Source: Escherichia coli (GTDB lineage Bacteria > Pseudomonadota > Gammaproteobacteria > Enterobacterales > Enterobacteriaceae). Taken from it: a DNA stretch of 9,120 nucleotides. Position numbers and translations under genes: made by a program. Each line of letters opens with the position of its first letter. Positions within the stretch are counted from its first letter, which is position 1. The notes beneath the pieces were generated by a model that did no database searches, was not told the DNA's origin, and saw nothing but the letters and a program-made list of their open reading frames with translations. Of the stretch, positions 1 to 3,704 are shown piece by piece. The DNA is taken from the NCBI RefSeq assembly GCF_003334335.1, contig NZ_QOWQ01000067.1. One strand, written 5' to 3'.

Positions 1-43
1 TGAATCAGGAGAGCAGATTACCCCCTGGATCTGATTTCAGGCG

Positions 44-1858
44 TTGGGTGTGGATCACTATTGCACCGTTCGTGACAATCAGCACGGAAACAAGATCAGT
101 CTGAATGAACAGCAAAGAAAGGCGTTTAACAAACTGGTCAATAATGGCCCTCTCTCCCTGCTTCAGGGGCCACCGGGGACCGGTAAAACCGAGTTCATCG
201 CGGCCTTTGTTCACTACCTGATCGAGAAACAGAATACCAAACGCATTTTACTGGTCAGCCAGTCACACGAGGCTGTGAATACAGCGGCCGAGCGTATCAG
301 AAAGCATTGTTCCCGGCTTGGTACAGAGTTGGACGTTGTCAGGTTCAGCAACCGAGAGGGAGCCGTTTCCCCTGGCTTAAAAGATGTGTACTCACACGCA
401 ATCACAACAGAGAAGCGCGAACTCTTCAATGCTGAAATTAAGTACCGTGTTGAAGCATTGAGTGAAGCTATTGGTCTGGAGCCGGGATTTATTTCGGGTG
501 TTGTTCTTGCAGAGCTCAATTTGTTCAGACAAATCGATCACCTTGAGAAATTGCTCTATCAGGTTAACAATTTAACGGATTCAAATGAGAGCAATGAACT
601 GAAAGATATTGCAGTCGAACTCGATTTTTCCATCCGCTCTAAGCTGAGTCAGGAGTATGGGATTAACTTGGACAAAGGCGTGAAGGTCTCAGCAGCAAAA
701 GACATTCTGATTTCCAAGCTATGTACAGAGTATGGTGTCAGACCTGATGAGGCAAGACGAGTAAAAGCAATAGCTAAAATATCCCGTGATATGCAGGATG
801 CTATGTCGGGAGAGCGAGTGAACCTGGACGAGTTTTATTCGCGCTCCAGACAGTTAGTGGCTGGCACATGCGTTGGTATTGGACAAGGGCACATTGGCAT
901 TCAGGAGAATATCTATGACTGGGTGATTATTGATGAGGCGGCGCGCTCGATTTCAAGTGAGCTGGCCATTGCAATGCAGTCAGCCCGGCGTGTCCTGTTG
1001 GTGGGTGACCACATGCAGCTTCCTCCATTGTACTCAGATGCCCACAAGGCGGCATTAGCGAGGAAGCTGGGTATCAATAACTCCCGCACTGAAATTGACG
1101 AGGTATTACGAAGTGACTTTGCCCGAGCCTTCAACTCTGCTTATGGTGCGCAGAAGAGTGCAGCTTTGATGACCCAGTATCGTATGGCTCCACCGATTGG
1201 TAATCTCGTATCGAAGACGTTTTATGACGGGAAGCTTCTGAATGGAGTACGGGCAATTCCGGATGTCTATCAGCAAGCTCCGGAAGCGTTACGTAGCGTT
1301 GTAACCTGGCTTGATACTGCTAATCAGGGCCACCGAGCACATCATCTTGAAGATCGCGGAACAAGCATTTACAACCGATGTGAAGCTGACGAGATTATTT
1401 CTGTTCTTAAACAGGTGTCAGAGAATGAAGAATTTGTCGCTAAGCTTTCAAAACTTGTTAGCAAAGATGAAGCCGCTATCGGCGTGATATGTATGTATGC
1501 CGAACAAAAGCGGTTACTCCGTCAGAAATTCAATCAGGAAATCTGGAGCGAGGGATTTAAGGACATTGTTAAAATTGACACTGTTGACAGTTATCAGGGA
1601 AAGGAAAATCGGATCATTATCCTGTCACTGACGCGTTCGGATAAGCAGCATAGCCCAGGTTTCTTACGCGTTCCAAACCGTATAAATGTCGCGATGTCAC
1701 GCGCAATGGATCGACTGTTGATTGTGGGTAATGCCGATATCTGGAAGGGAAACAATAAAGAATTGCCATTAGGCTACGTTGTAAGTTATATGGCTGCGCG
1801 AGGTCAGGAAGCTGGATACAGGTTCCTCTCTGCTCAGCAGGGAGGCAAAAAGAAATGA
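44..1858 (+). CDS. Superfamily 1B helicase, Upf1/DNA2-like (AAA_11/AAA_12-type core)
   Basis: 604-aa ORF with the full ordered SF1 motif set: Walker A GPPGTGKT (nt 167-190), motif Ia LLVSQSHEAV, Walker B DWVIIDEAA (nt 917-943), motif III GDHMQLPP (nt 1004-1027), motif IV QYRM (nt 1175-1186), motif V VDSYQGKE (nt 1584-1607), motif VI NVAMSRA (nt 1685-1705). Start is uncertain: TTG at 44 or GTG at 50, no in-frame ATG for ~245 codons, no clear SD, and an in-frame TGA at 32-34. Confidence 0.85.
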   Translation: MGVDHYCTVRDNQHGNKISLNEQQRKAFNKLVNNGPLSLLQGPPGTGKTEFIAAFVHYLIEKQNTKRILLVSQSHEAVNTAAERIRKHCSRLGTELDVVRFSNREGAVSPGLKDVYSHAITTEKRELFNAEIKYRVEALSEAIGLEPGFISGVVLAELNLFRQIDHLEKLLYQVNNLTDSNESNELKDIAVELDFSIRSKLSQEYGINLDKGVKVSAAKDILISKLCTEYGVRPDEARRVKAIAKISRDMQDAMSGERVNLDEFYSRSRQLVAGTCVGIGQGHIGIQENIYDWVIIDEAARSISSELAIAMQSARRVLLVGDHMQLPPLYSDAHKAALARKLGINNSRTEIDEVLRSDFARAFNSAYGAQKSAALMTQYRMAPPIGNLVSKTFYDGKLLNGVRAIPDVYQQAPEALRSVVTWLDTANQGHRAHHLEDRGTSIYNRCEADEIISVLKQVSENEEFVAKLSKLVSKDEAAIGVICMYAEQKRLLRQKFNQEIWSEGFKDIVKIDTVDSYQGKENRIIILSLTRSDKQHSPGFLRVPNRINVAMSRAMDRLLIVGNADIWKGNNKELPLGYVVSYMAARGQEAGYRFLSAQQGGKKK

Positions 1859-2871
1859 TATCTGATAACAAAGTTACCTATCATGAGGTTGACTTCCTGC
1901 TGCCAGCACAGAGGTTTAACATTCAGTTTTCCTATGTTTCCCAGAAGGGGCTGCCATTTATCCGGGAGTTTGTGCTGAGACTGGTTCATGTAGCTTCGAT
2001 GAGCAAAGCACAAATAGCAACCTATTTCGGCCTGACCCACCGTGAGACAGAGGAGGCGATTTCCGATCTTGTGCAGCGTGGCGAATTGACGCTCTCCTCA
2101 GACGGCAGACTGGCCTTAACAGACAAATCAAATGGCTATTTTTCAGAGGTTGGCGAGATACCGCATCTTTCAACTATTCAGGACAGTGGCTGTACTTTAT
2201 CCTTTGATTTAGCCACATTTAGTTGCTTCAGCAACCAGGCTTTTCAGGACCACTGGAGGGGAGGGGTAACATTAAAGGTTGATGACAACAACATTTCTCA
2301 AAGTGAGAAACTGGTTGAGAAGCACTTTCAATACCAGTTTAATCAAATCCTGGATAAAGGTTACCTGTCTCACCTGCAGGTTCAGGTCGGAAAAGAACAA
2401 CCTTCTATCTATACCGTTAATTCTGTTAATAAGCTGCGGCAAATACCACTCCGTTTAACAACGGAATTTAAAATGGATAGCGATGGTAAGGCTGTCGAGC
2501 GTGAAGACTATGAACAGTTAAATAGTTCGGAATGTGTTCATGAGTTAATGGCTGTTGAGATAGCCAGGTTATCACGGCATAACAATACCATGAGTATTTT
2601 TAAGGCCATGCAATCCATTAACGATGACCTTACGCTTAAGCTGTTTGACTCTAAAACGAATCGACTTAATCCGTTGTTTATCAAAGATATGCAAGCACTG
2701 GAAGAATACTCGTCCTCAGGCAGAACGACTTTTTTAGGTCCGGTTTATTCTAAAAACAACTGGGAAAAGCTGCAGAAAGCTCTGGCACCAGCGCTCAATC
2801 AGCGTATCAGAGATAAAACTGATTATGGAGGTAGCCCGTTCATCTGGGTGGCACCATCAGATCCCTACTGA
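1855..2871 (+). CDS. Hypothetical protein, helicase partner; N-terminal winged-helix/HTH-like segment
   Basis: 338-aa ORF whose ATG overlaps the helicase stop (ATGA at 1855-1858), indicating translational coupling. GGAGG at 1841-1845 sits 9 nt upstream. Residues ~35-90 (FIREFVLRLVHVASMSKAQIATYFGLTHRETEEAISDLVQRGELTLSSDGRLALTDK) have a helix-turn-helix plus wing pattern. No HxKxxxxD (PLD) or other catalytic motif recognised by eye. Confidence 0.7.
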   Translation: MISDNKVTYHEVDFLLPAQRFNIQFSYVSQKGLPFIREFVLRLVHVASMSKAQIATYFGLTHRETEEAISDLVQRGELTLSSDGRLALTDKSNGYFSEVGEIPHLSTIQDSGCTLSFDLATFSCFSNQAFQDHWRGGVTLKVDDNNISQSEKLVEKHFQYQFNQILDKGYLSHLQVQVGKEQPSIYTVNSVNKLRQIPLRLTTEFKMDSDGKAVEREDYEQLNSSECVHELMAVEIARLSRHNNTMSIFKAMQSINDDLTLKLFDSKTNRLNPLFIKDMQALEEYSSSGRTTFLGPVYSKNNWEKLQKALAPALNQRIRDKTDYGGSPFIWVAPSDPY

Positions 2872-2952
2872 TCAAAAAGCATTCGATTTATCTCAAGCCT
2901 GAGCAATTTTCTTAGCAAGTCGGCTACGAAGGATAAGCAGCTGTATAAACCG

Positions 2953-3291
2953 GTGCTGTACGTACCTGTCCGGGATGCAGCTGATGCTCGGGTTGCCAGA
3001 CAGTGGAAGTATGAACTTGGGCAATTCCATGAGTACGCTAAAGGACTAGTTGAGGGGCTGTTAGATGGTAATGTTGAGATCCTTCATCTTGAGGATGAGT
3101 TATCTGCCGTTATCTATCATATTTCTCAACCCGAAATATTGCCTGTAACGATGCCACTGGGCTTTATCACAACGAACAAAGAAACGGTTAAGATTATTGG
3201 TACTCTGGTTACTGAATATATCAAAGGCACCACTGGTTTTGATAAGTTTCATGACTGTGGCGCAATTTCGGCAATGATTAAGAAAGGTTGA
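2953..3291 (+). CDS. Hypothetical ORF; possibly the C-terminal continuation of 1855..2871 interrupted by an in-frame TGA
   Basis: Same frame as 1855..2871. The 27 codons straight after the TGA (2869-2871) are stop-free and run into this ORF, giving ~140 open codons in AT-rich DNA. There is no ATG and no convincing SD near the GTG at 2953. Protein-like composition. Confidence 0.35.
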
Positions 3292-3350
3292 GCTGTTGGA
3301 ACAGGAGGTATGGGGCATGTTTGCGTATTTTTATGGAAAGAAATAACCCA

Positions 3351-3704
3351 ATGACGGCGTTACTCTCCAACTGGGTTGACGCGTGCTGCCTGTTAATGGC
3401 TCCGCTGAATGATGCCCTATACCGTTATGTGATGAACACCCGCCTGGGAACCATCCACGGCACGTCGGTCGGCGAACTGCTGGCGTGGATCAAAGAAGAT
3501 GAAAACCCTCGCAAAGGCGAGATGGTGCTGATTATTGAAGGCCATAAAGCCCAGGATGACGAACTGCCCGCCGATGCGCTGCGTACGCTGGCGCTGTTGT
3601 AGGCTGAGCTGCCGTTGAAGCAAGCGGCGGCGTTGGCGGCAGAAATCCACGGAGTGAAGAAGAATGCGTTGTATAAGTATGCGCTGGAACAGCAGGGGGA
3701 ATAA
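3351..3704 (+). pseudogene. rsmI: 3' remnant of 16S rRNA 2'-O-ribose methyltransferase RsmI gene; 5' two-thirds absent, internal TAG
   Basis: Translation from ~3438 ([50 protein letters not shown]) then, in frame past TAG 3600-3602, [33 protein letters not shown] ending at TAA 3702-3704. This matches my recollection of the E. coli RsmI C-terminus. No N-terminal methylase-domain sequence is found upstream in any frame. The 5' boundary of homology (3351-3440) is uncertain. Confidence 0.55.

Follow-up and report, generated by a model that had tools for sequence, protein, structure and literature searches.

The G+C step near position 3350 as the probable seam of two imported modules in a mosaic Escherichia coli genomic island

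Mokosh type I has been described as an anti-phage system of two genes, one encoding a COG1112 helicase together with a Ser/Thr kinase domain and the other a phospholipase D (PLD) nuclease, and phage protection has been published for other representatives of Mokosh than the one treated here (Millman et al. 2022, bioRxiv 10.1101/2022.05.11.491447). The malX-malY operon is known from E. coli K-12 (Reidl & Boos 1991, as cited in PMC4209514). Relatives of both stand side by side in a 9,120-nucleotide stretch of E. coli DNA (RefSeq assembly GCF_003334335.1, contig NZ_QOWQ01000067.1; hereafter the window), with Mokosh genes in the left third and a hydrolase-like gene, malY and malX to their right. 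A sequence-only reading of the window had noted that its left ~3.3 kb, called a helicase module, is richer in AT than the phosphotransferase system (PTS), lyase and hydrolase genes that follow, and had taken this as independent support for a foreign origin of the helicase module. The analysis reported here indicates, with a probability that we put at about 85%, that the G+C step near 3350 is the seam of two independently acquired modules within an E. coli genomic island of mosaic structure. Such mosaics, like Mokosh type I, are already known biology.

Composition and distribution of the two modules

The G+C content was 45.7% at positions 1-3400 and 54.6% at 3401-8400 (two-proportion test, z ~8 by hand calculation), and 300-nt sliding windows ranged from 0.39 to 0.52 on the left and mostly from 0.50 to 0.59 on the right. 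In a single-change-point likelihood scan the best break fell at 3346-3354 and improved on a homogeneous model by 33.5 nats; a real step is therefore present, far larger than binomial chance would give. The contrast drawn in the sequence-only reading was thus borne out, the difference across ~3300-3400 being large, and its boundary at ~3.3 kb was about right. The size of the step is nevertheless ordinary for E. coli: in 150 kb of strain SW4848, 24% of 8.4-kb windows held a change point at least this strong, and the strong change points in that sample lay mostly at the borders of accessory loci.

The difference is almost wholly an effect of the third codon position. G+C at third positions (GC3) was 0.484 in the mkoA fragment (overall G+C 0.472) and 0.46 and 0.39 in the two open reading frame (ORF) pieces of mkoB (overall G+C 0.434), compared with 0.694 in the hydrolase-like gene, 0.682 in malY and 0.677 in malX; the left codon usage is AT-richer, as had been noted by eye. 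These values bear on the idea that the step stems from the make-up of the encoded proteins, or from how strongly the two sets of genes are expressed, and not from their origin. Membrane and metabolic proteins do use amino acids unlike those of a helicase, and G+C at first positions varies among the genes; however, G+C at second positions hardly changes across the step (0.35-0.37 on the left, 0.38-0.39 on the right) while GC3 differs by ~0.22, the non-coding or pseudogene stub of rsmI has the high GC3 (0.68) as well, and the change point falls within 10 nt of the breakpoint found by comparative genomics. We regard this explanation as very improbable. Each module would retain the third-position composition of its source, and hence the G+C step.

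Which side is atypical was judged against 45 named core genes of SW4848 (G+C 0.516 ± 0.048; GC3 0.552 ± 0.077, maximum 0.666); a random baseline of three 50-kb genome stretches was dropped because the stretches hold islands (waa, rhs, the high-pathogenicity island and an Ag43 island). The Mokosh genes (GC3 0.45-0.48) lay at z ~ -0.9 to -1.4, and their Karlin B distance to the core was 0.32-0.40, the core's own spread being 0.336 ± 0.086; since this is within the core range, codon usage was dropped as a foreign flag for the left genes. The right-hand genes (GC3 0.68-0.69) lay at z +1.6 to +1.9, above the entire core range, and by codon usage they stood closer to neighbouring Enterobacter genes (B 0.16-0.25), their distance to the E. 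coli core being 0.30-0.34. The right block therefore deviates in GC3 from the core at least as much as the left. The step alone does not identify the foreign side, and with a GC3 only ~1.3 standard deviations low the helicase module would not be flagged as foreign by composition alone; presence/absence and context do flag it. Composition is accordingly not the independent support that it had been taken for.

Among 5426 complete E. coli genomes, 287 carried at least 80% of the window content at ~99.9% identity. The left module (78-3350) was found in 312 of them (~6%) and the right module (3705-8400) in 313 at at least 99% identity; the right module also occurred in ~230 genomes, including UTI89 and ATCC 25922, at ~94% identity over a retained 69% of the query, the greater part of malX being deleted there. 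The two modules are accessory DNA and for the most part occur together, in the same ~6% of genomes. That a foreign helicase module sits in native E. coli chromosome, with the PTS, lyase and hydrolase genes as its native flank, would fit the AT-richer left side and its nature as an accessory defence cassette. The limited distribution of the right block argues against this, as do its position at a depth of over 10 kb in an island with an integrase, the rsmI and kbaY pseudogene stubs that bound it (all 5426 genomes have an intact rsmI elsewhere, which shares only 85-87% identity with the stub), its colinearity with Enterobacter, and a GC3 above that of each of the 45 core genes. A native flank is extremely improbable, and the step is a seam between two imported blocks in a pathogenicity island, not an edge between foreign and native DNA. 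For the helicase module, gene identity, context and presence/absence all speak for mobility, and the first reading is supported to that extent; the argument from composition does not hold, because the side used as its reference is itself foreign and leaves no native standard.

The Enterobacter-like block, the junction and the island

Positions 3443/3446-8804 formed one colinear 5.37-kb match, at ~86% nucleotide identity, with E. cloacae, E. quasihormaechei and E. hormaechei. The gene order of E. cloacae M-7 at this place is agaA-agaS-kbaY-malX-malY-hydrolase-like gene-rsmI-lpoA, and because kbaY and rsmI are intact there, the right module appears to be a piece of Enterobacter-type chromosome with both end genes cut. 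The designation "Enterobacter-like" is suggested by gene order and by 89-92% protein identity: when one genome per species was scanned, the 637-aa hydrolase-like protein had its nearest relatives in the Enterobacter cloacae complex. The rsmI stub, whose annotation reads as an incomplete 16S rRNA methyltransferase gene interrupted by a stop, is colinear with Enterobacter rsmI at ~84-86% identity. It was also considered as the displaced 3' end of rsmI at an island attachment site, which was rejected on three grounds: every genome has an intact native rsmI elsewhere, the stub has diverged too far from it, and the same stub is present in UTI89, which is without Mokosh.

In SW4848, 300444 and UTI89 the region lies well within a large island that starts with a P4-type tyrosine integrase beside phoH or dgcT and contains IS1, YfjI-family and Gp2-family genes, IS100, IS150, and iro or sfa virulence genes; as the region is deep in this island, no native chromosome lies in the window. 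The element varies in presence among strains, has an integrase and mobility genes at one end, and carries insertion sequence (IS) elements and virulence cargo. Its blocks differ in G+C, from 0.40 in the backbone to 0.45 in the Mokosh segment, 0.54 in the Enterobacter-like block, 0.51 in the kbaZ-agaR-garD stubs, 0.44 in the DeoR-rbsK-fucP block and 0.535 in iro, set against the 0.516 of the core genes. The UTI89 island, usually described as serX-associated, occupies the same chromosomal region.

Comparison with UTI89 located the seam itself. The backbones of SW4848 and UTI89 are 98.2% identical, dropping to 89.6% near the Gp2-family gene, just before the junction. There follow 7.1 kb in SW4848 (L001 16160-23286, L001 being its island region) without a UTI89 counterpart, which hold a decayed TOTE primase fragment, mkoA and mkoB; homology restarts at L001 23287, equivalent to window position 3357 and within ten bases of the G+C change point. 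A real junction is thus placed by alignment at 3356/3357. The 87 nt at 3357-3443 are 92-93% identical to annotated IS66/ISEc23 transposase genes and are annotated in UTI89 as an IS66 fragment; this remnant between the modules points to IS-mediated assembly.

The same junction could have arisen if Mokosh were ancestral to this island family and UTI89-type islands had lost the cassette by an IS66-mediated adjacent deletion, the seam then being old and not a recent insertion point. The annotated IS66 remnant measures 117 nt in UTI89 but 87 nt here, ~30 nt less, the decayed TOTE primase fragment 5' of mkoA suggests long residence and turnover at the slot, and the fall in backbone identity just before the junction would agree with such a history, but this fall fits equally well a recombination that swapped a segment of cargo plus backbone with another related element. 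We consider an ancestral Mokosh possible but rather unlikely.

For the assembly of two imported modules, the order of events, the role of IS66 and the donors that we infer are as follows. The Mokosh cassette (45% G+C) would have entered a cargo slot just downstream of the Gp2-family gene in a P4/CP4-57-like island backbone; an Enterobacter-derived 5.4-kb fragment (54% G+C, GC3 0.68) would have been joined to the Mokosh side through IS66 activity and fused at its far side to E. coli-type kbaZ/agaR DNA; afterwards, an IS100 insertion that removed or separated the first 64% of mkoA, together with a nonsense mutation, would have inactivated the defence system.

Several points weigh against this account. 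In the 49 kb of L001, which stop short of the island's far end, neither a tRNA integration site nor a pair of flanking direct repeats came to light, and the limits of the island are therefore undefined. Identity to sequenced Enterobacter is only ~86%, similar to that between the rsmI stub and E. coli rsmI, so the donor would be an unsampled or older lineage. The core baseline consists of 45 genes of one strain and not of a whole genome, the IS100 junction and the two point lesions were seen only in the window itself, and the data do not tell a Mokosh insertion in this island lineage from a deletion in that of UTI89.

At its right end, the window is 97-98.7% identical to native kbaZ (8816-9120, in ~5300 genomes) and only 78-81% identical to Enterobacter; altogether, the window comprises at least five pieces of different origin. 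The 134-aa ORF at 8547-8951 joins the 5' end of an E. coli-type kbaZ to the 3' end of an Enterobacter-type kbaY, and the aga operon (~7 kb) that lies between kbaZ and kbaY in Enterobacter is deleted at this chimera. The features of the window are listed in Table 1.

Table 1. Features of the 9,120-nt window, in order of position
Feature	Position	Strand	Remarks
IS100 terminal 77 nt (end next to istA)	1-77		100% identity to annotated IS100 ends; insertion truncates mkoA
mkoA 3' fragment, ~residues 1061-1652 of 1652	78-1858	+	Upf1-like superfamily 1 helicase core; nuclease-related (NERD) and kinase-like domains missing
mkoB, 478 codons	1855-3291	+	inactivated by TGG->TGA (W339*) at 2869-2871
Non-coding tail of Mokosh-bearing segment	3292-3356		right end of the 7.1-kb segment missing from the UTI89 island
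IS66-family (ISEc23-like) transposase gene fragment	3357-3443	+	junction scar, 87 nt
Foreign rsmI 3' stub, pseudogene	3443-3704	+	internal TAG at 3600-3602; left end of Enterobacter-like block
629/637-aa uncharacterised protein (hydrolase-like)	3771-5684	-	89-92% aa identity to Enterobacter spp.; GC3 0.694
MalY/PatB-family C-S lyase	5674-6852	-	TIGR04350, 363.7 bits (cut-off 340); GC3 0.682
malX-type PTS IIBC gene	6861-8433	-	TIGR02004, 689.8 bits; GC3 0.677
Enterobacter-like kbaY 3' stub	8546-8804	-	right end of block; annotated incomplete class II aldolase
E. coli-type kbaZ 5' end and part of agaR-kbaZ intergenic region	8816-9120	-	second copy, inside island

Other observations on the right-hand genes were made. 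The 637-aa protein had no sequence match in Pfam, NCBIfam or PDB; it is named "enterotoxin" or "alpha-galactosidase" in RefSeq, its gene is kept beside malX-malY in Enterobacter, Raoultella, Kluyvera and Yersinia, and relatives at 31-47% occur in Verrucomicrobia, Planctomycetes and Gemmatimonadetes. Near its 5' end, malX carries an extra T in a T8 run (8417-8425) when compared with SW4848 and E. cloacae, which shifts the frame after about codon 5; an ORF of 501 aa that begins at an internal Met is left. The extra base may be a genuine lesion or an error of sequencing. Identity of the gene with the "malX PAI marker" used to type extraintestinal pathogenic E. coli (ExPEC) gained no support, as Johnson-type primers, in the form used here, matched nowhere in the window even with 3 mismatches. 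B2-type islands (UTI89, L003 15001-18238) have a hydrolase-malY block of 94% identity, have lost the larger part of malX and retain an additional kbaZ-like gene; the two island lineages are ~6% diverged in the hydrolase-malY block and only ~2% in the backbone. The intergenic region after the rsmI stub (3705-3770) contains a palindrome resembling repetitive extragenic palindromic (REP) elements, with GCCGGGTGGCGCTTGCGCCTTACCCGG; its core 11-mer GCCTTACCCGG, at 3739, was present in Enterobacter loci and absent from the 150 kb of E. coli sampled. This motif was given no weight, because several of the Enterobacter matches are probably the orthologous site.

The Mokosh cassette and its inactivation

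By match to curated profiles, the left module would be the 3' portion of a Mokosh type I cassette, a known anti-phage system. The genes mkoA and mkoB are adjacent and co-oriented with a 4-nt overlap, and both gave full-length matches: the complete mkoA of SW4848 (L001 16830-21788) scored 2203 bits with PADLOC MkoA PDLC03921 over residues 1-1648, and the mkoB product scored 503 bits with PADLOC MkoB PDLC03923, covering residues 3-472. The helicase of MkoA is C-terminal (AAA_11, E 4e-38; AAA_12, E 3e-42), matches Upf1/NAM7 structures (E ~1e-29) and falls in the IGHMBP2 family TIGR00376 (E 8.5e-50). A kinase-like region was recognised by PglW and MAD6 kinase models (residues 53-456) and by Pkinase (577-659, E 7e-6), and is not in the fragment that the window holds. 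In this subtype of MkoA the kinase-like region is also preceded by an N-terminal NERD domain (residues 53-135; L001 16830-17240), of which the Mokosh description of Millman et al. (bioRxiv 10.1101/2022.05.11.491447) makes no mention.

In MkoB, no PLD domain was detected by sequence in Pfam, NCBIfam, a PDB phmmer search or a PDB profile search, and no HxK(x)4D motif was recognisable; PLD-like folds were matched by the C-terminal domain in a fold search of the predicted structure. With a MkoA that combines NERD, kinase-like and Upf1-like parts and a MkoB that combines a winged helix-turn-helix with a PLD-like fold from which the canonical HKD lysine and aspartate are lost, this subtype may act unlike a PLD-nuclease Mokosh, for instance with NERD as the nuclease and MkoB as a nucleic-acid-binding sensor or regulator, a suggestion that we advance as doubtful.

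The copy in the window is not intact. Positions 1-77 are identical to the IS100 ends at L001 39656-39732 (SW4848) and L002 14756-14832 (300444), and the sequence 5' of position 78 departs from the uninterrupted mkoA of these two strains. Because this stretch is an IS100 end, the ORF at 44-1858, which the sequence-only reading had treated as a helicase gene, is an artefact that starts inside the IS: its first 34 nt belong to IS100 and the rest is the last ~592 codons (36%) of mkoA, which is intact in SW4848. In mkoB, position 2871 is A in the window and G in SW4848 and 300444, and the tryptophan thereby lost, W339, was invariant in 40 homologues. With mkoA cut at 77/78 and mkoB stopped at W339, the cassette is doubly inactivated in this strain. 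Strain 300444 has an IS100 at another site of the same mkoA gene (L002 12895-14832), so IS100 has inserted independently at least twice.

Directly upstream of mkoA in SW4848 lies a frameshifted fragment annotated "TOTE conflict system archaeo-eukaryotic primase" (L001 16310-16645), which suggests that the defence cargo of this slot in the island has turned over. In E. coli AW1.7, an mkoA-mkoB pair of 85% identity was found within a Tn7-like element with TnsA/B/C and TniQ/TnsD (L069 8824-15200), and MkoB homologues are scattered among Providencia, Enterobacter, Xenorhabdus, Vibrio, Shewanella, Hahella and Cupriavidus; this location and distribution fit a predicted mobile defence cassette. The AW1.7 element also holds several TIR-domain genes and a CBASS phospholipase around mkoAB.

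Comparison with known systems

For annotation, the window is best taken as a Mokosh type I cassette in decay beside an Enterobacter-derived sugar-utilisation block in an ExPEC-type island, and not as an intact helicase operon inserted into the core chromosome. It should also be noted that a local G+C step shows that neighbouring segments differ in history, but neither whether one of them is native nor which one. In this window the side that looked normal is itself an import from another genus, and its GC3 departs more from the E. coli core than does the GC3 of the segment flagged as foreign.

The locus resembles described Mokosh type I in having two adjacent, co-oriented genes and a MkoA that joins a COG1112/Upf1-like helicase to a kinase-like region, and differs in that MkoB matches no Pfam PLD model, MkoA carries an N-terminal NERD, and the system in the window is broken by IS100 in mkoA and W339* in mkoB. 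With the malX-malY operon of K-12 it shares the same two adjacent families, a MalX-type PTS IIBC component and a MalY/PatB C-S lyase; the copy in the window, however, is paralogous, foreign and linked to the additional 637-aa gene. The aga-rsmI region of the Enterobacter cloacae complex has the same gene order (agaS-kbaY-malX-malY-637-aa protein-rsmI-lpoA) and similar G+C and codon usage, but nucleotide identity is ~86%, the end genes are truncated in the window, and the block lies in an E. coli island. Finally, the island matches that of the uropathogenic E. coli strain UTI89 (integrase-YfjI-Gp2-...-sfa) in its backbone (98%), in the same IS66 remnant and rsmI stub, and in a hydrolase-malY block at 94%; UTI89 is without the 7.1-kb segment of TOTE fragment, mkoA and mkoB and without most of malX, and carries sfa where SW4848 has other cargo.

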